IMG/VR virus record: IMGVR_UViG_3300021387_000036
Coordinates: 32,001 to 96,000 of that record
Source: a virus
Taxonomy: Duplodnaviria > Caudoviricetes
Length of the DNA: 64,000 nucleotides
Strand: one strand, 5' to 3'
Made by a program: the position numbers and the translations under genes. This document shows positions 49,798-63,811 of the stretch, in pieces. The first letter of the stretch is position 1. Every line of letters begins with the position of its first letter. The notes beneath the pieces were generated by a model that was not told where the DNA came from, searched no databases, and saw nothing but the letters and a program-made list of their open reading frames with translations.

Positions 49798-50013
49798 TTA
49801 CTCATTTTCTACTTCTTCAACAGTAATACTAGAAGTAATAATACAATTTTTAACAACTTTAATGTTGCTTAAAAAGTTGTCTTGCATAAGTTCTGCAACT
49901 TTAGTTTGAACATTTTCAAGACTATCTTCAGTATAAACTGTTCCGTCTGAATTTTGTAAATACTTCCATCTTTCTGCGGTTGATGTAGAAACTTTTAATA
50001 GGATAGAATACAT
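49798..50013 (-). CDS. Hypothetical protein
   Basis: 71-aa ORF with AGGAGG RBS; followed by GGGAGTAGTT hairpin terminator. Confidence 0.65.
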   Translation of the reverse strand: MYSILLKVSTSTAERWKYLQNSDGTVYTEDSLENVQTKVAELMQDNFLSNIKVVKNCIITSSITVEEVENE

Positions 50014-50034
50014 TTGAATATCCTCCTTTGTATA

Positions 50035-50598
50035 TTAATGAACCTCTTTCATCATTAATTCTTTGTATTTATGATGAAAAGGTTTTTGTTCATCAATAAT
50101 TACATTTATATCATAATCTGAAGCCATTTTATAAAGTTGATATTTTTCAGCGGTTTGAAGCTCTTTTTCAACTTCACATAGAATTTTCTTTAATTTACAA
50201 CTCGCGCCAACTTCTCCTAAACTATCTAACTCTTGACATTTTTTCTGATAAAGTTTACAAGTGTCTTTCTCCCATTGCACCCATGAGTCTAATCCATCTT
50301 TTACAGCTGCGCGTTTGGTTTTAGAATCTACGTCTTGTCTACGGTATCCTAACCAACTTTGTGGAACTACATCTGGATTTTCAAATGGAAGAGGCGGTAA
50401 TAGCTGATTATATTTTTTTATATAATAATGATATAGTTTTCTATAACTATGGCTTTCATCAAAGAAATGATATTCATGACATCTTTTATATCCTTCTAAT
50501 CCTAAAAAATCATAATAATTTGCTGACTGTTCATGAAACATAAGTCCTTTTAACATATGTCCGAGAATTTCTTTAAAAATGTCTTCTACTGTTGCCAT
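50035..50598 (-). CDS. Ferritin-like four-helix-bundle protein (putative)
   Basis: H/E-rich helices (MFHEQ, CHEYHFFDE, WEKDT, EVEKEL). Confidence 0.5.
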   Translation of the reverse strand: MATVEDIFKEILGHMLKGLMFHEQSANYYDFLGLEGYKRCHEYHFFDESHSYRKLYHYYIKKYNQLLPPLPFENPDVVPQSWLGYRRQDVDSKTKRAAVKDGLDSWVQWEKDTCKLYQKKCQELDSLGEVGASCKLKKILCEVEKELQTAEKYQLYKMASDYDINVIIDEQKPFHHKYKELMMKEVH

Positions 50599-50609
50599 AA
50601 TTATCTCCT

Positions 50610-51017
50610 TTAACAAACTTTAGTCACTACTATATGAGCTATTGAATAATTGCCTGCTTCACCGGTGTTTATAATTTGAATAGTTGTAGGACTTGAGCAG
50701 CAACATGGAGTATTGTTTTGAGGTACTTGAACTAAAGTTTCAAAACAGAGTGATGAACTATCTCCTGCTGCGCCGGTTTCGATTGATTGAGCTTGTGGCT
50801 GAACTACTCCATTTTTACTAAGCTGGATTGAGACATCTCCAACCGCGGTTGGCGCAATAGAACCATCTACATGAATCATATATACTCCAGCTTTGTTTAA
50901 TTGAATAGTTGCGGGAGCTGATAAAGTAGCTGTGCAACCTTTGCGAATTGTTACGTTATTAAAAGGAATTGCTGCGCCTTCTGCAACATCTATATCTGTA
51001 CTATAAGCTTCTAACAT
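50610..51017 (-). CDS. BclA-C-terminal/C1q-like beta-sandwich protein
   Basis: AIPF....TIQLNKAGVYMI...IQL..NG...PQA; ends VVTKV. Confidence 0.55.
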   Translation of the reverse strand: MLEAYSTDIDVAEGAAIPFNNVTIRKGCTATLSAPATIQLNKAGVYMIHVDGSIAPTAVGDVSIQLSKNGVVQPQAQSIETGAAGDSSSLCFETLVQVPQNNTPCCCSSPTTIQIINTGEAGNYSIAHIVVTKVC

Positions 51018-51107
51018 TTTTTTTACCCTCCTATATATTAAAAAAATGGGTGTACTTATTGAATAAGTACACCCATAAAATTAGACGTACTAAATACGTT
51101 CAGTTAA

Positions 51108-51779
51108 TTACATTCCTGCATAACCGCAGTTACATCCGCAGAATGGACTCATACCTGCATTGTATGTCCATGCGTTTGGATATCTTACAACTCCAGCCAT
51201 AGCGTTTTGAAGTTGAAGATCATTGATTTGGTTCTGCATATCAGCCATTCTGTTGCCCGCGATCATATCTTTAACGCTCTGAATCTGTTCAGTTACGTTA
51301 GCATTAATAGCGGCAGTGTTAAGTGCTGCGTCATATCTGTTCTGAGCCGCAGTTTCTTGAATTAACATTTTTGTACCGCAGCAGCAGTCATTCTGTGCAG
51401 CTAAAAGATTTGCCTGACCTACAGCAAGTCCAGCTATATCGCGCTGAAGTTCGCCATATTTATCCTGGATTGCGCCAAGAGTGTCATGGAAAGTTTGATT
51501 AGTTGCTGCAACTGATTGAGCAGTTCCGCTTGTTACTGCACTGAGGATTTCTCTCTGATTTGCCATTGTGTTTTGGTTGTCAAATCCTCTCTGAACCTCG
51601 TTAGAAGTTGAAAGGTTTTCATAACCTATTGCATTAGCGAAACCATTGTTTCCCCATCCGCCAAATCCGCCGCCCATAAGAGCGAGAATTGCGAAAAGCC
51701 AGATAAATGAATTATTACCTAATCCACCATCATTTAATAAAGCTACATCGGAAGCTGATAATCCTGTTCCATTATCCAT
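51108..51779 (-). CDS. Conserved Clostridia phage protein (Gly-rich hydrophobic N-terminus, coiled coil, CCC motif)
   Basis: LSASDVA...WLFAILALMGGGFGGWG, VQRGFD, DCCCGT, Cys-rich tail. Confidence 0.7.
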   Translation of the reverse strand: MDNGTGLSASDVALLNDGGLGNNSFIWLFAILALMGGGFGGWGNNGFANAIGYENLSTSNEVQRGFDNQNTMANQREILSAVTSGTAQSVAATNQTFHDTLGAIQDKYGELQRDIAGLAVGQANLLAAQNDCCCGTKMLIQETAAQNRYDAALNTAAINANVTEQIQSVKDMIAGNRMADMQNQINDLQLQNAMAGVVRYPNAWTYNAGMSPFCGCNCGYAGM

Positions 51780-51818
51780 AAGCTTGCCCTCCTTTAAATA
51801 AAATAATATATTAACCTA

Positions 51819-52043
51819 TTAAATAGGTCTATTTATCATATTTAATACTTCTTGTGGATTAATGCCTTTTTGTTTTGCTAATTGATAAAATACTTGTTCA
51901 GCGTTCCCTCCATTTTGTTTAACTAAATCAATAGCTTCTTTCAAACGAGGATTGTTTAAAACCTGAGATTGAAGTCTATCATTTAGTTGCTGTAACGGTT
52001 TTCCGAATAATTGGTTGCTGAACCGCTGGTAAATTTTGTTCAT
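51819..52043 (-). CDS. Small Q/N-rich protein of the same cassette
   Basis: GGNAEQVFYQLAKQKGINP. Confidence 0.65.
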   Translation of the reverse strand: MNKIYQRFSNQLFGKPLQQLNDRLQSQVLNNPRLKEAIDLVKQNGGNAEQVFYQLAKQKGINPQEVLNMINRPI

Positions 52044-52416
52044 TAGGCACGCCCTCCTTTTGTGGTATTAACTCTAAAAGTAATGCTTGTAATTCATCTT
52101 TTTTAACATAGGCAGATAAGTCTAATTCTTTACTCGGTTCATTATCAAATTCTTCAATAAATCTAAATTTTCTTAAAAAAGGTCTGCCTGTGTTATCAGT
52201 TGTTTTGATATACATTTTATCATCACTTTCACTATCAAAAAGAGCAACCGCAGAATTATAACCTTGCACTAAATATGCGGAAGCTCCTATATCACCATTT
52301 ACCCATTCCATATTAGTAATTTGCTTTAATGGTTGTTGAGCAGGTTGTAATTGATTATAATTGTTATAACCCATCATCATATTTGGGTTATTATTATATA
52401 AATTATTCATCATCAT
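51979..52416 (-). CDS. M/N/Q-rich N-terminus protein of the same cassette
   Basis: WVNG..GA.AY.V......LFDSE...YIK.TD..G.P...YVKKDE. Confidence 0.7.
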   Translation of the reverse strand: MMMNNLYNNNPNMMMGYNNYNQLQPAQQPLKQITNMEWVNGDIGASAYLVQGYNSAVALFDSESDDKMYIKTTDNTGRPFLRKFRFIEEFDNEPSKELDLSAYVKKDELQALLLELIPQKEGVPNEQNLPAVQQPIIRKTVTATK

Positions 52417-52435
52417 TGTTTATCGCCCTCCAAAT

Positions 52436-52547
52436 AAAAAAATTGCCCTCGAAATTAATCGAGGGCATAATAAAAACCTAATAAAAAAAATGCCCTTAGT
52501 TATAAATAAACTAAGGGCATATATTTATTAAAAATAAGCTTGCCCTC
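52436..52547 (-). promoter_or_regulatory. Attenuator-like leader with two tandem terminators and an upstream antiterminator motif
   Basis: GAGGGCAAG at 52539-52547; T1 ATGCCCTTAGTT/AACTAAGGGCAT plus T-tract; T2 TGCCCTCGA/TCGAGGGCA plus T-tract. Confidence 0.7.
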
Positions 52548-52556
52548 TTATCTTTC

Positions 52557-52601
52557 TATTGTATATGATTTTTGGAACTTTGCGATTTAAAGCGTTTGTC
52601 C
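52557..52601 (-). promoter_or_regulatory. Class II promoter-like motif
   Basis: GGACAAA-CGCT-TTAA...N27-CATATACAAT. Confidence 0.55.
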
Positions 52602-52611
52602 AAAAAATTTT

Positions 52612-53412
52612 TTACGCTATCGTTTCAAAAACCCATGAAGTAGCAGATGGAAGATAGCTTGAACTCATTCCATAAAATCTACTTAAATAATAATATGGTT
52701 TATTATCAATAGTAATTTTCTCTACATAATTTTGTAATGCAGGGTTAGGTCCAACTGTAACTATGTTAATCATATCTATAAAATGATTTAGTCCATATAA
52801 TTTATTAAATTGAATAACATCAGAAGCAGTTTTATATCTCCAAGGATTATATACAGTAAATATTTTATCTTTATTTGTTCCATCATTTAATACATAATAA
52901 TGATTATTACTATCTCCTTCATAAGATAAAGTTATACAATTATCTTCATCATCAAAAGTTATAATTTCATGAATTGTATAACCATGTGCTTTAATATCTT
53001 CAGTTGTAGAAGTGCTTGCATACACTCCTAACATAATACCACCATTTTTTAGTGGTAAAATATCTAAAGATACAAGATAATTAAGACCTATCATTGTATA
53101 GGTATTATAATTAATATCAATAGGTAAGTTATAATAGTCATTGTTATTATCTGTAAGCATAGAAGTTGCACTGATATAAGTATTACTATTTAAATAAATA
53201 CTATATATAGTTTCTCCTTGTCTGTTACCTTTATTTATTTTTATATTACAACATATAGTTCCTCCTAAGGCAGTAGATGAAGTACTATCAATTTCAGCCA
53301 ATAGTAATTCAGAGTATTGAGTATTTATTATTTGTGTAATTTTTGTCATTATAACTTGTGCTTGTTTCTCTGAACTATCGCCAGAGTCAGCTCTAACATC
53401 ATAGTGTGCCAT
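52612..53412 (-). CDS. Hypothetical virion-accessory protein, distantly like 43.8-46.6 kb paralogs
   Basis: LPLKNGG motif, ITIDNKPYY near the C-terminus. Confidence 0.55.
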   Translation of the reverse strand: MAHYDVRADSGDSSEKQAQVIMTKITQIINTQYSELLLAEIDSTSSTALGGTICCNIKINKGNRQGETIYSIYLNSNTYISATSMLTDNNNDYYNLPIDINYNTYTMIGLNYLVSLDILPLKNGGIMLGVYASTSTTEDIKAHGYTIHEIITFDDEDNCITLSYEGDSNNHYYVLNDGTNKDKIFTVYNPWRYKTASDVIQFNKLYGLNHFIDMINIVTVGPNPALQNYVEKITIDNKPYYYLSRFYGMSSSYLPSATSWVFETIA

Positions 53413-53768
53413 TATTCTACCTCCTCAAAAGTAATACTATCTTGGATAGATGTATTGTTAAAGAGTGGATTTACCATTTCAAAAAAACCTATATATTCTC
53501 TTATCCCACCGCCGCCACCTTTAGGAAAAACCACCCAATCTTCACCTATTTTAATATAAACATTCACGATTGAATTATCAATATCGTCTATTTGTATATA
53601 AAATTTACCTTCTGTTGTTGCATCAGGCTCATTGGTTCCAATTATATAAAAAGCATTTAATAAAGTAGATACAGGAGTTCTTCCTGTGGAACCATTAAAA
53701 TTACCTAATACTTCATCTGAAGATAGAACTTCTGATACAGAAGGTAAAGAATCTGTTCTTACTCCCAT
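53412..53768 (-). CDS. Short tail-fibre-like adaptor protein
   Basis: GTNEP...G.FYIQ...VY.K....W..GGGGG module also seen twice in 54046-55473. Confidence 0.55.
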   Translation of the reverse strand: MGVRTDSLPSVSEVLSSDEVLGNFNGSTGRTPVSTLLNAFYIIGTNEPDATTEGKFYIQIDDIDNSIVNVYIKIGEDWVVFPKGGGGGIREYIGFFEMVNPLFNNTSIQDSITFEEVE

Positions 53769-53781
53769 TTTATTTCTCCTT

Positions 53782-53997
53782 TATATAATATTTTAAATCT
53801 TTAATTGCATTAAAGTTACCAACCTCTACCCCTTTTAATGCCCTCGCTTTATATCAATTACAATTATATCTGGGCGGCAGCCCAATTAGTTTAGTAATTT
53901 TGCCCTCCTAAAATATTAATACTTAAAGTTCCTACAACGCATATTAAAGAATAAACGTTGGTAACTTTAACACAATTAAAGATTTAGATATTATATA
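53782..53997 (-). promoter_or_regulatory. Structured 5' leader bounded by a ~41-bp inverted repeat, with an alternative internal hairpin
   Basis: Arms 53782-53823 and 53957-53997; two internal mismatches are G-U pairs on the minus-strand RNA; competing partner at 53923-53939; two GAGGGCA motifs inside. Confidence 0.65.
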
Positions 53998-54045
53998 TAT
54001 TTTTTTTATTTTATAAATTAAACATTCTTACCCATGATTAAATAT

Positions 54046-55473
54046 TTAGTTTTTTGTATATCTAAGCGTTAAATAATTTACAGTTCTTGTAACGTTTTGA
54101 CCATGTGTACCTGAAACTCCAATATTATTAGAACTTGATAGTTTTGTAGTTGAGCATAAAACATATACATCATTACAAACAGCTTCAGCAGAAAAAACTT
54201 TGTCATATGAAGAAAATGATATACCCGTATCACTCCAGGCTCCACCTGCTTGTAAAGTAAAAGATACCGCATAAGTACATTCATAAATTGTACTTCCATC
54301 TATCCATGTTCCTATAACTTGTTCATTAGTAGAATAGTGATGTGTAGGAGTAATTGATACAGTGGATCCTCCACCGCCGCCTCCGCCGTTTATATTATAA
54401 TTATTTTCACCAATCTGTAAACTAGATAAACTTCTAGTTGTTGGTTTTGTAGAGTTTGGAATTAAATACTCTTTTAATATTCCATATATATCATTTTTAG
54501 GTACTGTTTCAAGAGATTCATCACTTGTTGTTTCAAGTTCTTCTCTTTCAGAGGTCAGTAATGAAGTACCTATACGGACTGCGGTTTCATCTAATTCTTG
54601 AACTTTATTTTCAATCTCTGGATCTACGCTTCCTCCACCAAAAGGATACCATGTATCATTAACTTTTCCATATACTTGCGTAATTCCTTGATTATTATAT
54701 TGCATGTATATAGAACCATTATCTCCTTGAGATGCTGCGGGAGGGTCAGTCCCAAACAGATTGACACTACCTTCAGGAAACTCATACCAGGTTCCCGCAA
54801 TATTACCAAATACGCTTGTAATATCTCTGATATATACAGGCTCACTTCCGCTTTTATCTATCTCTTGAGTATATTTTAAATAAAGCATACCAGTTGTTCC
54901 AATACCATCAACTGGGTCTTCAATACCTACCATATTAGCAACTTCAGATAATGTTGCAGATATTACATCATTTTCTATTGTTATATTTTCACCAGCGGTC
55001 AATCGATTTTGTTTAGAGCTGGCTAATGCTTGGCTTGCAGCTAGGGTTGTACTATTTCCATTTATACTTGTGATACCTGATATTAGAGTATCATTAATTT
55101 CAACCCCGTTCCCGCTAATTATAATCACTGGGTCTAATCTATCTGTATCATATAATAATATCTGCTTATTAGTTGCATCTATCATAAATTTAAAGTAATC
55201 TGCTTCGGTTTCCGCCTCCACATCTTCTTCAATTATCTTTTCTACTTTAAGGTTATCAGGTTGAATAGTGACTGTTTTAGTACCATCAGCGCTAATGAGG
55301 TTCAAATTATCTTTACTCAATCCGCTGATACTAATAACTGTACCACCTTCAGTTCTTTCTGCTAAACTAATAGTAGCATCTGGTATGTGGAGGATATTAT
55401 TTTTATCAAGTTTAAGACCATCAAATGTAGGTAAGTCTTTAACTTTAACTAAAAAATCTTTACTATTTGGCAT
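54046..55473 (-). CDS. Tail fibre / receptor-binding protein
   Basis: KQNRLTAGENITIEN, duplicated G..DP....G..G..Y module, C-terminal HYSTNEQVIGTWIDG...Y domain. Confidence 0.7.
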   Translation of the reverse strand: MPNSKDFLVKVKDLPTFDGLKLDKNNILHIPDATISLAERTEGGTVISISGLSKDNLNLISADGTKTVTIQPDNLKVEKIIEEDVEAETEADYFKFMIDATNKQILLYDTDRLDPVIIISGNGVEINDTLISGITSINGNSTTLAASQALASSKQNRLTAGENITIENDVISATLSEVANMVGIEDPVDGIGTTGMLYLKYTQEIDKSGSEPVYIRDITSVFGNIAGTWYEFPEGSVNLFGTDPPAASQGDNGSIYMQYNNQGITQVYGKVNDTWYPFGGGSVDPEIENKVQELDETAVRIGTSLLTSEREELETTSDESLETVPKNDIYGILKEYLIPNSTKPTTRSLSSLQIGENNYNINGGGGGGGSTVSITPTHHYSTNEQVIGTWIDGSTIYECTYAVSFTLQAGGAWSDTGISFSSYDKVFSAEAVCNDVYVLCSTTKLSSSNNIGVSGTHGQNVTRTVNYLTLRYTKN

Positions 55474-55496
55474 AGTTTTTAATACCTCCTAACGAA

Positions 55497-55559
55497 AATA
55501 AAAGCCCTTGAACTAAATGAATAGAACAAGGGCATATTTTTTTATTTTTCTCTTGCCCT
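55497..55559 (-). promoter_or_regulatory. Attenuator-like leader (AGGGCAAG followed by terminator)
   Basis: AGGGCAAG at 55552-55559 precedes GCCCTTG/CAAGGGC hairpin plus T-rich tract, just before the RBS. Confidence 0.6.
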
Positions 55560-55560
55560 G

Positions 55561-55606
55561 ATAATATATATCATTTTTATAGAATCTAATTTTAATAGGT
55601 TTGTCC
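55561..55606 (-). promoter_or_regulatory. Class II promoter-like motif
   Basis: GGACAAA-CCTA-TTAA...N27-GATATATATTAT. Confidence 0.55.
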
Positions 55607-55613
55607 TAAAAAT

Positions 55614-58163
55614 TTAATCAATTTTAGCTTCTAAAGTAGCTATTCGCGCGGATAGATTTTCTATTTGTTCTTGTTGAATTTGACACATTTTTATTAAATA
55701 TGGCACAAATTTTGAATAATCAATACATGGTACCTTCCATGGTTCTTCAGGGTTGAATTCTGTGTAATCATTTGGAATATCTACCATTTCTGGATATATT
55801 TCAAGAACCTCTTCTGCGATTAATCCTCTATGATTTTCTCTATCAGACCTATCTTTATCACTATAATCAAAAGAGACAGGACGTAACTGCAATAACTTAC
55901 TTGCTTCTTCATCTGTAATATCTTCTACATTTTCTTTTACATGAATTGAAGATTCAACAATAAATTTAGCAGCTCTTAGTTTTCCCCAAGTTGAACTGTT
56001 ACGCCCAATAAAATCTAATGTATCATCAGCTCTTTGGGTTATCCTACATGTAAAATCATTGCTACTATATAATCGATGGAAATCTATAAATGCTTCATTT
56101 CCACCAAATAAGTCTATTCCACCTCCATTTGTTGTAGTTCCCGAAGAATATGTTTTATTTACATCAATACCGTATTTAAATGTAGTATAACCTGTTACAG
56201 TTCCTCCACTAATAGGTAAATAATCACCAGTTGCTTTAGTGACAATTGTTCCGAATCTACCTCTATCGCAATATTGAAGATTAGAACCAGTACCACTATA
56301 ACACCCATTCCAAAATGCTATTGCGGATGCTTCTACTACTTTTGTTCGATTTGCAGTAGTGCCCCATCCTATATCACCAACTGAAGACCTTGTAAATACA
56401 TCTTTATATGCTGCAGCAGCAAGCCCTTTAACACTTACATTAGTTCCCGCTATCTTAACTTGTCCATTAGAATCACCAGTTCCAACGTTTCCACTATGAG
56501 CAATGGTATATGCAGTTCCTGGATTTCCATTAATAAGATTGAAAATACTTACTTGATTATTGCTAGCATCTCTATTAGTTTTAGTACCAAATACAAATTG
56601 AAGATTATCATTATTATAGTTACCAATCTGCCAATGCCCACCAGATTTTGTATCCATGCAAACCACAGGATACCATTCGTCAACATTTAAATCTTTCTTT
56701 GCATATATACCCGCATTACCCGACGGATTAATATAACTAAGCGATCTAGCAGGAACTTGAATATTCGCAATATTGATATTACTAAAATTTAACTGCCCAC
56801 TCATCGTATCGCCACGTTTATTAACTTTACCATCTAATAAACCGAATAATCCTTCAGTTATATCATATGGTAATGATATATTCCCAGATTCGTCTTCACC
56901 ATTAACAGTACTCCAGCGATGTCTATATACATCTTCAGAATTAATTATTATCTCTTGCCCAGTTCCTTCACCATCGTCATAAGTGGCAATAAATCTATGC
57001 TGACCAGTAGTATCTTGTCCCATTTCAATATAACCATCATGTTCAAATGGGATATGCTCCATAATCAAATCCCCAGTCATAGTATCGCCAGTTTTAGATA
57101 CTTTATTACTAGTATCCATATTTGCTAAAGTATCTAATAATGATGTATGAGTTCCATCCCAAGTGCCACTTGTTTTTTCAATATCGCCTTTTAGTTCTAT
57201 ATCGCCTGTCCATTTAACTGCGAAAGCGTTAGAACGTGAGTAGTTATCAGTTCCGTTACCTATTATATGAGCATATATATTATCTGAATCTTCAATATTA
57301 TATCTTCCTGCGACATGCTGATTTTTTGAAGAAGCTTTTGTTCCTTCTCCTTCAGTATGTGATGCCCTTCCGCTTGCTTGAGTATTTATACCTTCAGCAT
57401 GGCTACTTTGACCAGATGCAGTGTTAGAATAGCTTACAGATTCACTACTTAAATTGCCGCCACCTTCAGCATGGGAGTAATTTCCACTTGCAGTTGTTTG
57501 ACCTTCAGCATGAGAGTATTTACCACTTGCGGTAGCTTTTCCCTCTGCGTGTGCGCCCTCTTCTGAAGCAGTTGAACCAGAACCTTCTGCATGAGCTGTG
57601 AAACCTGAAGCGGTTGTGCTTTGACCTTCCGCATGACTTGATTGACCTGTTGCTTTAGTATTATTACCTTCTGCATGGGCGCTAATTCGTTTCGTTGTAC
57701 TTGATGCACTTTCCGCACCTGCATAAGTTTGATATCCTTCTGCATGGTTATAATCTCCATAAGCAAAAGTAGCATAACCTTCTGAATGACTATAATTACC
57801 ACTTGCATTAGTACTTTTCCCTTCAGTATGTGAGCAATCTCCATTAGCCCTTGTACCAGCTCCCTCAGCATGACTATATTCGCCACTAGCTGTATTGCTA
57901 GAACCATGACTAAATGAGTAGTCACCTATGGTACTATCAGGAAATCTTGTACCTATAGTTAAAGCCTTGTGGTTTGCATTATAAGTCATGCCTTCGCTCT
58001 TTCCTGCGCCCTCGGTTCTTGTGATGTTATCAGCTGTGCCAGAAAAAAGAATCTCATACTCGGCATCCGTTGTAGTCTCAGTCTGTATTACTTTTCCAAT
58101 ATTAGCTTGGTCTTGCTCAGATAATCCTCCTATTTGTCTACCCTGGTTTATTAAAATACCCAT
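55614..58163 (-). CDS. Long tail fibre with SHAEG (YadA-like head) repeats and C-terminal peptidase S74 chaperone domain
   Basis: About 14-aa (T.ASG..SHAEG) repeats; SS..KENV....L.LRPV.F.Y...GLIAEEV....PEMV...IDY.K..PYLIK..Q. Confidence 0.85.
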   Translation of the reverse strand: MGILINQGRQIGGLSEQDQANIGKVIQTETTTDAEYEILFSGTADNITRTEGAGKSEGMTYNANHKALTIGTRFPDSTIGDYSFSHGSSNTASGEYSHAEGAGTRANGDCSHTEGKSTNASGNYSHSEGYATFAYGDYNHAEGYQTYAGAESASSTTKRISAHAEGNNTKATGQSSHAEGQSTTASGFTAHAEGSGSTASEEGAHAEGKATASGKYSHAEGQTTASGNYSHAEGGGNLSSESVSYSNTASGQSSHAEGINTQASGRASHTEGEGTKASSKNQHVAGRYNIEDSDNIYAHIIGNGTDNYSRSNAFAVKWTGDIELKGDIEKTSGTWDGTHTSLLDTLANMDTSNKVSKTGDTMTGDLIMEHIPFEHDGYIEMGQDTTGQHRFIATYDDGEGTGQEIIINSEDVYRHRWSTVNGEDESGNISLPYDITEGLFGLLDGKVNKRGDTMSGQLNFSNINIANIQVPARSLSYINPSGNAGIYAKKDLNVDEWYPVVCMDTKSGGHWQIGNYNNDNLQFVFGTKTNRDASNNQVSIFNLINGNPGTAYTIAHSGNVGTGDSNGQVKIAGTNVSVKGLAAAAYKDVFTRSSVGDIGWGTTANRTKVVEASAIAFWNGCYSGTGSNLQYCDRGRFGTIVTKATGDYLPISGGTVTGYTTFKYGIDVNKTYSSGTTTNGGGIDLFGGNEAFIDFHRLYSSNDFTCRITQRADDTLDFIGRNSSTWGKLRAAKFIVESSIHVKENVEDITDEEASKLLQLRPVSFDYSDKDRSDRENHRGLIAEEVLEIYPEMVDIPNDYTEFNPEEPWKVPCIDYSKFVPYLIKMCQIQQEQIENLSARIATLEAKID

Positions 58164-58207
58164 AGGTATATTCCTCCTTATTTTATTTCTCTAAATAGAT
58201 GTATAGT

Positions 58208-58636
58208 TTAATTAGTGTCAAGAATGATTGTACTTGTTCCCCACATCTTTGAACTTGATGTGATGGTAAATACAGAGCCACTTCCAGAGACTGTAAATGT
58301 ACGTGAACCATGTATTACTGTGGCTGTTGGAGCGGTATCTAAACGTAGTAAAACAAAGTGTGCTTGGTTTGCATTAAAAAATATAGCATTTCCAGCTTTT
58401 GTTCCATCTGGAGTGAATCCTAAATCCACAGTAAATGTATCGGTATTAAAAAATGTATATATTTTGGCGTTGCCTAGTTTTGACTGCATAGTAGTTAAAT
58501 TAGAATTTAGTTCATTTATTGCTCCAGTTACAGTAGTCGCTTCTGTATCAAGAGTCTCGCTTCCTAATAAATCGCGGGCTTCCGCATCTTTTAACTCTAA
58601 GACGTCTCCGCCTACGACCATTTCTTTTGCATCCAT
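58208..58636 (-). CDS. Short fibre-like protein
   Basis: LKDAEAR, L.T.A.TVTGAINELNS motif typical of fibre stems. Confidence 0.6.
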   Translation of the reverse strand: MDAKEMVVGGDVLELKDAEARDLLGSETLDTEATTVTGAINELNSNLTTMQSKLGNAKIYTFFNTDTFTVDLGFTPDGTKAGNAIFFNANQAHFVLLRLDTAPTATVIHGSRTFTVSGSGSVFTITSSSKMWGTSTIILDTN

Positions 58637-58652
58637 TTTATTATTCCTCCTT

Positions 58653-59798
58653 TTAACTCAATATAATTCTTTCATTTGTAGAATCATAGCTTGCGCCATA
58701 GTTAAATATAATTCTTTCATTAGTTGAATCATAATAACATTGCGCGTTATGTATATCACTATCTATAATATGGTAAGTTACACCGTTCATTTTTTCAGCT
58801 TCAGTTAAAGCATTATATTCGGCGGTGGTCAGGTGTCTAAGACTCTGGACCCCATGCTTATCAGTCAGCATTCCCGCCAACACTTCATTTCCATCCCAGT
58901 CTATGGTCTGTGCGTTGGAACGCGCGCTTGAGGTACCATTACCTATAATATGGGCATATATATTATTACTATCTATAATATTGTATTTGCCTTGAACATG
59001 TTGATTTTTTGAAGAAGCTTTTGTTCCTTCTCCTTCAGTATGTGAGCAATCTCCATTAGCTGTTGTCCCAGCTCCTTCAGCGTGAGATGCCCCGCCATTA
59101 GCTGTTGCACCATTACCTTCTGCATGAGAAGAGCCACCATTAGCAGTTGTGCCATACCCTTCTGCGTGAGAATATGATGCAGTTGCATTAGTACTACTTC
59201 CCTCAGCATGAGAATAAGCTCCTGAGGCGATAGAACCCATTCCTTCAGAATGTGAAGCAGCACCTGTTGCACGTGTGCCACTTCCTTCTGCATGAGCATA
59301 ATCTACATTGGTATCTCCTGCAATAGTACCTCCTCCTTCGGCATGAGAACCTTGTCCTTGAGCAGAAGTGGAACTACCTTCGGCATGAGAAGAAGAGCCA
59401 GTCGCACGTGATCCATTACCTTCTGCGTGGGCTCCCGTATTTGTTGCAGAAGTGCCTATTCCTTCTGCATGACTTGCCTCTCCTGATGCAGTTACCCCCT
59501 CTCCCGCAGCTATTGAATATGAACCAGTATTACCTACTCTTGGTCCAAATGAAGCTGCTTTCTTATAAGGGTTATATGTGAATAAAGGCCCTTTTAATGA
59601 TTCAGAAGTGCTAGTTGTTGTACTATTACTATCTGATACTAAAATTGGATAATTAGAATCTTTTGTTGAATCATCATAAGTTAATGTTTGTTTTACTTTA
59701 GTATCATTATCATCTATATAACCTTTTATTTTTTGGAAGATTCTAGTAATCATCGCACTGAATCCACCATTTTCTAAACTTTCATATTTTGTTGCCAT
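58653..59798 (-). CDS. Fibre protein with SHAEG repeats
   Basis: About 12 SHAEG repeats, AHIIGNG...RSNA, LT.AEY.AL. Confidence 0.75.
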   Translation of the reverse strand: MATKYESLENGGFSAMITRIFQKIKGYIDDNDTKVKQTLTYDDSTKDSNYPILVSDSNSTTTSTSESLKGPLFTYNPYKKAASFGPRVGNTGSYSIAAGEGVTASGEASHAEGIGTSATNTGAHAEGNGSRATGSSSHAEGSSTSAQGQGSHAEGGGTIAGDTNVDYAHAEGSGTRATGAASHSEGMGSIASGAYSHAEGSSTNATASYSHAEGYGTTANGGSSHAEGNGATANGGASHAEGAGTTANGDCSHTEGEGTKASSKNQHVQGKYNIIDSNNIYAHIIGNGTSSARSNAQTIDWDGNEVLAGMLTDKHGVQSLRHLTTAEYNALTEAEKMNGVTYHIIDSDIHNAQCYYDSTNERIIFNYGASYDSTNERIILS

Positions 59799-59813
59799 AT
59801 AAGACACCTCCTA

Positions 59814-60455
59814 TTAAGGTGTTGGATTAAATACTGCATCATAAGCATCATCAACAATATCAGTAATTTCTGTATTTGTAATTAAGGATATATCAGTATA
59901 TTTAACATATCCGCTTAAATCAATAGCAGTTGTACCAATTTTTTCATATCCGCTCGTTGCGGGAGTTGTTGATGAATCGGTATACCAAACATATTCATCA
60001 TATATATTTGGAGCTGCTCCTCCGCTTGGAACTAAATAAATAACTCCATTAGTTCCTGTTGCGGGCAAGTCTTCATAGCTATTTACTTTATCAAAACTGA
60101 TTCTTTCAAAACCAGCTAATGCAGTTTGAATTAATGTATTAATTTCAGTATTACTAACTACACCTTTAGTAGTAGCTCCCGCAACTGGAATTTGAATCTT
60201 TTTATTTGTAATAGTTAAATCAGTACCATCAATTTGCGCACCTTCTACTACATTTTGTTCACCAAAATCTGAATAACTAACATGAGAAATCCCGCCCTTA
60301 TCATCAGTTAATACTATCCATTCATTAGTAGTATCTAATGAAATACTATATGTAGTATTAACATTAAGAGGACTTGTTTTTAATTTTGTAAAGATGTACT
60401 GAACTGCATATAACAGTCCATCATCATCTAATAAATTATATTGCATATTAGGCAT
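59814..60455 (-). CDS. Virion fibre/accessory protein
   Basis: LPATG..GVIYLVP.....N.YDEYVW...YEKIG...DLSGY motif. Confidence 0.65.
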   Translation of the reverse strand: MPNMQYNLLDDDGLLYAVQYIFTKLKTSPLNVNTTYSISLDTTNEWIVLTDDKGGISHVSYSDFGEQNVVEGAQIDGTDLTITNKKIQIPVAGATTKGVVSNTEINTLIQTALAGFERISFDKVNSYEDLPATGTNGVIYLVPSGGAAPNIYDEYVWYTDSSTTPATSGYEKIGTTAIDLSGYVKYTDISLITNTEITDIVDDAYDAVFNPTP

Positions 60456-60456
60456 T

Positions 60457-60864
60457 TTAATTTCCTCCTCCAAAAATAGCATCGTATTGTTCATCTATAA
60501 TTTGTTTTATGCGAGCATTTTTAATATCATCTCGACCTAATTCTTCAAAACTCTTATCTTGTGTTAATTCAACCCCGTTAATAGATGGTTTATTTATCAA
60601 TAGTTCATAATCTCCACTTTCTGCGGCAACCAGTTCTTGCCAGGATGTACCGTTAAAAAAGAATTCTACGTCTGGATTATTATATACAATAGTCCAGTCT
60701 CCCACCTTGGCAGTAACATATTGATTATCTATTACAATAGGATTAGTTGTATCATTATCTTGAAGTTCTGTTGTGGTTATTCCCAAAAATCTTGCTCTTG
60801 CTTTAAGTTCTTCTTCTATTTTTTTAATTTTTTTATGTAAAAGACCATATGTAATAATATCCAT
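60457..60864 (-). CDS. Virion accessory protein
   Basis: GD.......EF.FNG..W, DY..L.NKPSINGVEL...KS.EELG. Confidence 0.6.
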   Translation of the reverse strand: MDIITYGLLHKKIKKIEEELKARARFLGITTTELQDNDTTNPIVIDNQYVTAKVGDWTIVYNNPDVEFFFNGTSWQELVAAESGDYELLINKPSINGVELTQDKSFEELGRDDIKNARIKQIIDEQYDAIFGGGN

Positions 60865-61052
60865 TAAATCATCACCCACTCTCCGGCGGTAGTGAGCATA
60901 TACACTTCACTATTTTCAATACATATCGCTACGCTACCAGAGCTTACATCAGGTTGAATAGGCAAATTTTGAATATCATTAACTGTATCAACAGAAAACT
61001 CTGTATAATAAGTATTATTATGGTCTTGTTGTTTAATTCTTACAAAACCCAT
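60864..61052 (-). CDS. Small hypothetical protein
   Basis: EF..DT..DI..LP.....GS.A.......VY.L...GEW; AGGAGG RBS. Confidence 0.65.
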   Translation of the reverse strand: MGFVRIKQQDHNNTYYTEFSVDTVNDIQNLPIQPDVSSGSVAICIENSEVYMLTTAGEWVMI

Positions 61053-61159
61053 TCATTCAACCTCCTTTTAAATTATTTTTTAAACTTACGAATTTTCTAT
61101 AATTTATTTCAATTTTCTCAAAAAAAGATTAAATAGAATTGATTAAGAAAAGCGATTTA

Positions 61160-61209
61160 AAAAAGTTGAAATCCATTTTTTATTTGCGGTGGCGCCCGCT
61201 TCCACTCCA
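61160..61209. repeat. Dispersed ~50-bp intergenic repeat, copy 2
   Basis: Aligns with 9263-9311. Confidence 0.7.
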
Positions 61210-61222
61210 GCCAAATAAGCAT

Positions 61223-61255
61223 AAAAAAAGAGGGAATAGTATAAAACTATTCCCT
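61223..61255 (-). terminator. Intrinsic terminator ending the ncRNA transcription unit
   Basis: AGGGAATAGT/ACTATTCCCT 10-bp stem followed by CTTTTTTT. Confidence 0.85.
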
Positions 61256-61259
61256 AGTT

Positions 61260-61300
61260 GTAACTCCTAAACTGGAGGGCAAGGTAGAAGTAGGAGTTAC
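61260..61300 (-). ncRNA. Putative trans-acting hairpin sRNA with CU-rich loop
   Basis: Perfect 10-bp stem GTAACTCCTA/TAGGAGTTAC, 21-nt loop CTTCTACCTTGCCCTCCAGTT. Confidence 0.55.
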
Positions 61301-61304
61301 GAAA

Positions 61305-61348
61305 TGTGTCAATTCGGAGTTGAACCGAATCTAGTCCCTAGCTGACAC
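61305..61348 (-). ncRNA. tRNA-like minihelix (acceptor stem plus T arm, no D or anticodon arm)
   Basis: GTGTCAG/TTGACAC 7-bp stem, TTCGG-TTCAACT-CCGAA T arm, discriminator A. Confidence 0.6.
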
Positions 61349-61552
61349 CTGCTTATTAATGAGCATTTCCGCATGTTTAATAAGCTTTTTACTTTTCAAT
61401 TTTTTATTAGTATAAGCTTCAATAAGCTGTTTTTCATTTAATTCTTTTTCTTCAAATGCTTTATCATTAGTTTTCTTCATATCTTCTATTGAAGGTGAAC
61501 TACAATTTTTAGCCATAAAACTTTTCATTTTTGCAAATTCTGTTTTACTCAT
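61331..61552 (-). CDS. Small basic hypothetical protein
   Basis: GGAGG RBS, MSKTEFAKMK...; last codons overlap the tRNA-like element. Confidence 0.6.
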   Translation of the reverse strand: MSKTEFAKMKSFMAKNCSSPSIEDMKKTNDKAFEEKELNEKQLIEAYTNKKLKSKKLIKHAEMLINKQVSARD

Positions 61553-61565
61553 ATTAACCTCCACT

Positions 61566-62216
61566 CTTGATAACTTAATTATAATAATAAATATTAGACC
61601 TTCGTCTTACTCTGATTACCTTCTGTTTTATTAGACTAATAAGGAGATAAGTCTGAGCTTAAAGGAGCTACCTTTAAACTTCTTATCCCATTCCGTTTTC
61701 CACGGAACTCAGGTTTTGCACCTTTTATCTTATATAGGATTGATTACCTATAACTTTCACGCACCATTCAGAGTTGTTCTTCCTATTAAAGTTTTTCAAA
61801 ACTTTCAAATACTTTTTTATTTGATAATTCATAGCAGATTTGCGCTACTCGTACCCTGACCTTCTCTTATAGATTATTTCTAATCTTCAACTGCTAAACT
61901 TCCTTATTTTGGTATTACTTAGGTTTGCAGCGGGGACCACCCAACATACCACCTAACTAAGCTTCTTCCTCGCAGAGGCTGCCTATTACGGAAGCAAGAA
62001 GACAGTGTCTTAAACAGCGATAACCTCGAGCACGTACTACCAAAGAGCTTGTATTTTCTTTATACAAGTGGATATTTCTATCACTAGATAAATCCGTTCT
62101 TTCTTTCAAAGTATCCTTATCCAAAAACTTATTCTAATGGTTAGGCAGTACTCTCAGCATCATGGCATTGACTCTTCACTGAGTTAATACATTATTATTA
62201 TAATTAAATTATCAAG
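61566..62216 (-). ncRNA. Large structured ncRNA, GOLLD/ROOL-class candidate
   Basis: No ORF over ~650 nt, own promoter, 25-bp terminal stem with one U-G pair, many internal hairpins, adjacent to phage tRNAs. Confidence 0.7.
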
Positions 62217-62303
62217 GTTCTATTTTGTTTTATTTTCTATATATATTATATAAAAAATTTTTATAAATTTCAAATCATGTTGTCATAACTTTCAATTTAT
62301 GAG

Positions 62304-63679: not shown

Positions 63680-63811
63680 AATAAGCAACTTTCTTTTGCA
63701 GAAGCTAGATGGGTTATGGTAAGTTGCCACCTTTGTAATCCTCCACATTCACCGCATCCCATCACGGATTCTGTTTCATAGGCATCTACCTTTAGGCGGT
63801 GAGCGCCATAA

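Follow-up and report, generated by a model that had tools for sequence, protein, structure and literature searches.

We describe a hairpin RNA, encoded on the minus strand of a phage genome (Duplodnaviria; Caudoviricetes), whose exposed loop is complementary to a short tag in the leaders and ribosome-binding sites (RBSs) of a distant block of phage genes. The stretch analysed, referred to throughout as the window, is 64,000 nucleotides (nt) long and corresponds to positions 32001-96000 of the virus record IMGVR_UViG_3300021387_000036, the 130,270-base sequence of an uncultured gut phage (31.7% GC, 13 transfer RNAs (tRNAs) and one transfer-messenger RNA). A preliminary description of this DNA had proposed that a trans-acting small RNA (sRNA) pairs with the leaders and RBSs of the distant block, and this core claim is supported both by the enrichment of the tag in this phage and by conservation in its relatives. 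From these sequence patterns we consider it very probable that loop and tag pair in vivo. Our preferred model goes further, and we regard it as reasonably likely: an ~82-nt RNA derived from a tRNA or tRNA-like trailer would repress a late-promoter operon by a combination of attenuation and RBS occlusion. Promoter and RBS style suggest that the host belongs to the Firmicutes.

The hairpin loop and its tag in the window

The coordinates in the preliminary description all proved accurate. The hairpin has the 10-bp stem ascribed to it and lies between a tRNA-like element and a terminator, and the complementary motifs are present in the four RBSs and at each of the leader sites (55552-55559, 53900-53908, 53839-53845 with 53823-53831, and 52539-52547). 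The principal features are as follows.

61260-61300, minus strand: sRNA hairpin with a perfect 10-bp stem and a 21-nt loop (61270-61290) containing the seed (61273-61283)
61231-61255, minus strand: intrinsic terminator closing the hairpin unit
61223-61304, minus strand: predicted ~82-nt sRNA, comprising the hairpin and the intrinsic terminator
61305-61348, minus strand: 44-nt tRNA minihelix with a 7-bp acceptor, a T arm and a small D-like hairpin, but no anticodon arm and no CCA
49798-52416, minus strand: target gene block, genes A to F (145, 74, 223, 135, 187 and 71 amino acids)
52423-52432, minus strand: tagged RBS of gene A (start 52416); tag kept in the related contigs L119, L323, L325, L435 and L436
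52050-52057, minus strand: tagged RBS of gene B (start 52043)
51783-51792, minus strand: tagged RBS of gene C (start 51779), a perfect 10-bp match to the loop
51023-51031, minus strand: tagged RBS of gene D (start 51017)

The hairpin folds more stably than its shuffled versions, with a z-score of -3.6 alone and -4.7 with its flanks, and the computed probability that the loop core is unpaired exceeds 0.9. The complementary tag is enriched in the target region: GAGGGC occurs seven times on the minus strand of 51000-55600, a region picked post hoc, against 0.27 expected under an order-3 Markov model. Although 41 of the 148 called genes have a GGAGG RBS, this continues with GC or GT in only five, four of which are the consecutive genes A-D. 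When all 148 RBSs are ranked by pairing with the loop core, these four genes take places 1 to 4, with one other site tying for third, and shuffled loops equalled the pairing with the four RBSs in just 0.08% of 5000 trials. The genome's strongest duplex with the loop is at 53823-53845 (-24.7 kcal/mol). Departures of the tagged RBSs from the exact complement had been described as giving G-U pairs, which holds inside the 8-nt core. Two details required correction. The tag does mark four consecutive RBSs, but one more gene, starting at window coordinate 69344 (outside the window), has a GGAGGGT RBS; and 53823-53831, taken to match the other half of the loop, falls partly within the arm of a long hairpin. 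Genes E and F carry no tag.

In an unbiased scan of this genome for the best RBS partner the hairpin came second, behind a site at window coordinate 75620 that we rejected as buried within its own hairpin. Conversely, among phage sequences the best computed partners of the hairpin RNA are mRNA leaders and RBSs. The sole other minus-strand GGAGGGC is in the D arm of the phage's own tRNA-Cys (GGAGGGCA; record 98655-98724, window coordinate 66655-66724), where it is probably paired and incidental.

These data also speak to whether the hairpin could be a generic anti-Shine-Dalgarno RNA directed against host mRNAs, its matches in the phage being secondary. Firmicutes sRNAs do bind Shine-Dalgarno (SD) sequences via C-rich loops (PMC6158497). 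Pairing of the loop with ordinary phage RBSs is weak, however, averaging -8.5 kcal/mol against -16.7 to -20.7 kcal/mol for the tagged ones, and the phage itself maintains the tag. We consider a host-directed role very improbable.

Searches of Pfam, PHROG and NCBIfam returned no function for any gene of the block. The products of A and C match unnamed phage families only, that of C has a Gly-rich hydrophobic segment, that of D resembles BclA_C, and that of E has a ferritin-like fold.

The hairpin unit and the tag in related phages

We gathered orthologs of the block from viral, metagenome and genome collections; the relatives derive from metagenomes of the rumen and other animal guts. Most orthologs have ordinary RBSs. 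GGAGGG(C/T) is present on at least three of genes A-D in 5 of the 213 distinct RBS sets, two of which belong to this phage and the rest to L119, L323 and L325, a lineage with ~70% protein identity to it. L435-L437, fetched after that count, bear the GGAGGG(C/T) tag too, and every sister-lineage contig that reaches the gene block has GGAGGGC. At each of the 19 sites GGAGGG is followed by C or T, either of which pairs with a loop G. Because variation at this seventh tag position is limited to the two bases that can pair with G, it is the pattern expected of RNA pairing. The loop base adjoining the core also differs between lineages, being C in the window (with a target G at gene C and in the leaders) and U in the relatives (with a target A at gene D).

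If the hairpin is the partner of the tag, it should accompany the tag in these relatives, and it does. When the L323 lineage was extended upstream, a hairpin with the open loop UUUGCCCUCC was found after the last tRNA of the array, a tRNA-Cys, and before a terminator. The sister-lineage unit of tRNA-Cys, hairpin and terminator, with the loop core UUGCCCUCCA, is present in nine contigs. The hairpin is identical to the letter in all nine; the tRNA acceptor, the terminator loop and the upstream RNAs vary. It lies 4-5 nt past the tRNA-Cys in the relatives and past the minihelix in the window, and a tRNA or minihelix is directly upstream of it in every case found. The predicted sRNA aligns without gaps to the relatives' unit. 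Within this alignment the 10-nt loop core is identical, the terminator shows three double (compensatory) pair changes, and the sRNA stem is rebuilt, with another sequence and in another register, so that its covariation cannot be counted column by column. A descriptor search of the fetched loci recovered the tRNA-hairpin-terminator architecture in L435 and L436 only, and in the window genome it returned at least the hairpin unit and one other trailer hairpin. In the unbiased scan for an RBS partner, the hairpin ranked first in both L435 (z -5.3) and L436 (z -4.6).

A second tag complicates this picture. Ten phages (L237, L239, L241, L243, L244, L317, L319-L321 and L453) carry GAACGA between the SD sequence and the start codon of genes A, C and D. 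Their C and D proteins are closer to those of the window than the L435 lineage's are, and in a midpoint-rooted protein tree the window groups with this GAACGA clade, to which the L119/L323/L435 group is sister. The simplest reading, given a root that is only midpoint, is that the GGGC tag is ancestral and was replaced once by GAACGA. Gene A of the GAACGA clade is also preceded by a structured leader that is conserved (demonstrated in L237, L241, L243 and L244). Segments of tRNA-Met trailers scored as candidate GAACGA partners in L237 (z -5.3) and L320 (z -4.9); we did not accept them because they are mostly base-paired and neither L433 nor L438 has a counterpart. L353, L360 and L326 hint at a common RBS extension of their own on the same genes (GGAGAAGA), as do L373 and L378 (TTATAAC).

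The GAACGA clade lends itself to a different explanation, in which the tag is the site of an RNA-binding translational repressor protein and the complementary loop is incidental or used otherwise. Consistent with this, GAACGA stands at equivalent positions and, in two phages, within a hairpin loop at the leader's 5' end, and we found no accessible RNA complementary to it in the ~20 kb searched. A protein site would leave unexplained both the exact complementary loop in two lineages with different stems and the G-U-type variation of the tag, and we judge it improbable. Two points nevertheless weigh against our preferred model: this lack of a GAACGA partner, in the clade that is nearer to the window by the tree, and the fact that only two independent versions of the hairpin were found.

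Probable precursor, leaders and proposed direction of control

On the minus strand the tRNA array is followed by a sigmaA-type promoter, a ROOL RNA, an open reading frame (ORF), the minihelix, the hairpin and the terminator. The upstream members of this series are as follows.

62245-62273, minus strand: sigmaA-type promoter matching 11 of 12 consensus positions, the nearest strong promoter upstream of the hairpin
61576-62207, minus strand: ROOL RNA (Rfam RF03087, 287 bits), upstream neighbour of the hairpin unit
61331-61552, minus strand: ORF of 73 amino acids, from a phage family, with its last codons and stop inside the tRNA-like element

The sRNA had been proposed to be made from a sigmaA-type promoter. 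A strong one does lie upstream, but none belonging to the sRNA alone was found, and it is therefore probably cut from the ROOL/ORF transcript; the promoter at 62245-62273 likely drives ROOL, the 73-amino-acid ORF and the sRNA precursor together. In the relatives a true tRNA-Cys occupies the minihelix's place. The minihelix is like the phage's own tRNA-Cys in acceptor start and T loop and stands before a similar small gene, which suggests that the minihelix may be a tRNA-Cys remnant retained as a processing handle. In Bacillus subtilis, RNase Z cleaves tRNA precursors that lack CCA. Because the minihelix encodes no CCA, RNase Z is the probable cutter. L435 and L436 have no ROOL hit, indicating that ROOL is not required. 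The hairpin had no Rfam hit at E<=1 (window) or E<=0.5 (L435 and L436), viral contigs scanned for patterns of the loop or the minihelix yielded chance matches or nothing, and annotated phage genomes contained no relative of the RNA region.

Other structured RNAs lie nearby. The full-length ROOL RNA is expressed, forming a contig of its own in a gut metatranscriptome, and L237 has a ROOL too. A drum-like RNA and numerous other structured non-tRNA elements, including skipping-rope-like units with ACAGCAAA, lie among the tRNAs of the window (63681-63784, minus strand) and of the L239, L433 and L435 arrays, mostly without an Rfam hit. We weighed the skipping-rope, drum and ROOL RNAs near the hairpin and judged them to be separate elements. 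In the trailer of a tRNA-Lys (record ~118350-118425, window coordinate ~86350-86425), a weak hairpin stands before a terminator and displays the anti-SD-like loop UCCUCC; this is possibly a second trailer RNA.

We next consider the leaders in which the tag occurs.

~52601, minus strand: GGACAAA-type promoter before the block leader
52417-52557, minus strand: leader of the gene block, with the tag at 52539-52547 and terminators T1 (52490-52520) and T2 (52444-52467)
55504-55563, minus strand: leader of gene 55473, in which prefix folding allows pairing between the tag (55552-55559) and the 5' arm of a terminator-like hairpin (55504-55533)
53769-53997, minus strand: inverted-repeat leader of gene 53768, ~230 nt, with two sites (53900-53908 and 53823-53845)

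The GGACAAA-type promoter precedes other phage genes too and is retained in relatives; we infer that it is a late promoter. The regulon had been drawn to include all three leaders. Its conserved part is the block starting at 52416, and the 55473 and 53768 leaders were found only in this phage and not in relatives; a 475-amino-acid gene likewise has no relative among viral contigs. A very long inverted repeat (-70 kcal/mol), unique in the genome, closes the 53768 leader, which could be a sponge or an RNase III substrate. A strong terminator (51046-51076, minus strand) lies just before the gene D RBS, and is retained in relatives with a small upstream hairpin.

In L119, L435 and L436, the default fold of the operon leader is an antiterminator that occupies the base of the terminator's 5' arm; when the antiterminator's 5' strand is blocked, folding yields the complete terminator next to a U tract. 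In L435 and L436 this strand can form a 14-bp duplex with the loop and 5' arm of the relatives' RNA, in which the two differences between their leaders are absorbed as wobble pairs. RNA and leader cofold at -20.8 kcal/mol, compared with -7.6 kcal/mol apart, a gain of ~13 kcal/mol. Since blocking the antiterminator strand frees the terminator, the relatives favour repression. The first element of the window's block leader is the tag GAGGGCAAG, the counterpart of that strand. In prefix folding its pairing with the T1 5' arm is best at 44-62 nt, after which T1 wins, and the 55473 leader shows the same behaviour.

Altogether, the predicted leader switching and occlusion of four SD sequences favour repression, toward which we lean, with activation as the main rival. 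In the proposed mechanism, a host-type promoter would give a transcript with the hairpin as a tRNA 3' trailer, behind tRNA-Cys in relatives and the minihelix in the window. Cleavage after the tRNA-like domain, probably by RNase Z, would release the ~82-nt RNA with its terminator end. The loop could then pair with the GGAGGGC SD extension at genes A-D, blocking ribosome loading, and with the leader's first element, preventing the antiterminator so that the leader terminator stops transcription early. The basis for the leader switch is in silico for the relatives and kinetic only for this phage. The late-promoter accessory operon would thus be held down until its mRNA outnumbers the RNA.

Several observations sit less comfortably with repression by a processed RNA. 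Both window leaders form terminators at equilibrium with or without the RNA, so a switch in this phage would have to be purely kinetic. The minihelix by itself folds weakly (z only -2.0). In the metatranscriptome, contigs span ROOL (61578-62174) as well as parts of 50000-52290, with no RNA contig over the hairpin; short RNAs are lost in such assemblies, and the runs concerned (X2-X4) share contig ends and are probably a single sample, so these data neither show nor exclude the sRNA. The tail-fibre genes lack RNA contig cover as well, and we do not count such absence as evidence. Finally, block mRNA is present alongside ROOL in one sample, unlike a full shut-off: transcription of the block is possible when ROOL is abundant.

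This coexistence would suit activation, in which the same RNA and pairing shield the mRNA 5' end from a 5'-3' exonuclease, or bind the terminator's 3' arm and cause read-through. The tag is within ~20 nt of the inferred start sites, the 3' arms of the window's T1 and T2 contain the tag, these two terminators prevail at equilibrium, and there is a precedent in RoxS, which shields yflS mRNA from 5'-3' exonuclease (PMC5419742). On the other hand, the tag overlaps the SD sequences of four genes, and the strand predicted to pair in relatives belongs to the antiterminator, with no tag in the terminator arms. We consider activation unlikely. Somewhat less likely still, in our estimation, is that the RNA acts on translation alone, the window leader matches having arisen incidentally from repeats of terminator sequence. 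Terminator stems of the GCCC/GGGC kind are frequent in these phages, no part of the system is better conserved than the RBS tags, and the restriction of the 55473 and 53768 leaders to this phage would fit as well; the wobble-maintained 14-bp match to the leader antiterminator in two relatives argues the other way.

Beyond the preferred model of repression, we tentatively raise a wider possibility, about which we have more doubt than confidence: an address-tag regulon in which a guide hairpin comes at no extra cost as a tRNA trailer, the vestigial tRNA is retained solely as a cutting handle, one operon bears a private tag in each RBS and in its attenuator, and the GGGC-to-GAACGA swap in one sub-lineage is a specificity switch resembling that between immunity groups.

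Independently of these RNAs, some relatives have the appearance of a diversity-generating retroelement, with a reverse transcriptase beside long tail-like genes (L323:1-3800, L435:6113-12049, L244:1-3848). L323 and L435 also have a 130-amino-acid Avd-like gene and a template-like repeat, and L435/L436 gave an RT-2 RNA hit.

Significance and comparison with known RNAs

Few phage sRNAs have known targets, and in the open literature we found no described phage sRNA that derives from a tRNA trailer and regulates a distant phage operon at the levels of both termination and translation. The model offers one reason for the tRNA arrays and broken tRNAs of large gut phages, namely that they could be processing handles for regulators, and it marks a widespread, function-unassigned gene block as tightly timed. 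As a two-part system of an 82-nt RNA and a 7-10-nt tag, it lends itself to reporter assays in a laboratory Firmicute with no need for phage culture, and RNA and tag could be used as a compact orthogonal switch.

The c4 RNA of P1 and P7 sits within the antirepressor operon and uses two target elements. This antisense RNA (Rfam RF01695) controls that operon (PMC12197685), and the section of PMC4919922 that cites ref. 206 treats it as an RNase P substrate. The present RNA resembles c4 in displaying, in a loop, complementarity to a ribosome-binding region, and it too may be processed by a tRNA-maturation nuclease; its lineage-specific sequences could also confer specificity, as in P1/P7 heteroimmunity. 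Unlike c4, it consists of one hairpin derived from the 3' trailer of a tRNA, in a phage probably of Firmicutes, and has no RF01695 hit.

P4 CI RNA, as presented in the part of PMC4825925 that cites Sabbattini 1995 and Briani 2000, is a small, precursor-processed RNA that pairs with leaders and prematurely terminates the phage's own genes. According to the same account it is cut from the leader under its control, with seqA upstream and seqC downstream. The likeness lies in a small phage RNA predicted to come from a precursor, in leader pairing, and in the premature termination proposed here. The RNA described here differs in that it is encoded 5.7-13 kb from its targets (5.7-10.2 kb in the window and ~13 kb in relatives), behind a tRNA, also targets the operon's RBSs, and has no Rfam or sequence match. 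With c4 and CI it shares loop-exposed complementarity to the leader and RBS of phage genes. Their covariance models gave no hit in the window, L435 or L436, and the targets, rather than lying in the RNA's own transcript, lie past a terminator and under a different type of promoter.

RsaE/RoxS of Firmicutes pairs through a C-rich loop or unpaired motif with the G-rich SD regions of several mRNAs (PMC6158497, PMC5419742). Our RNA has such an unpaired C-rich motif complementary to SD regions, and the Rfam search of the window, L435 and L436 found no homology to RsaE/RoxS in sequence or structure. Whereas those RNAs are chromosomal metabolic regulators with their own promoters, specificity here would come from a private SD extension in the phage's own targets.

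In Escherichia coli, excision from a tRNA transcript's 3' trailer yields the functional RNA 3'ETS-leuZ, which sponges sRNAs with Hfq (PMC8166272). The hairpin has the same location, in a tRNA-transcript 3' trailer, and is instead predicted to bind mRNA leaders and RBSs. Judged by its sequence and predicted structure, then, this is an RNA that would work like P4 CI and P1 c4 while standing outside both families.

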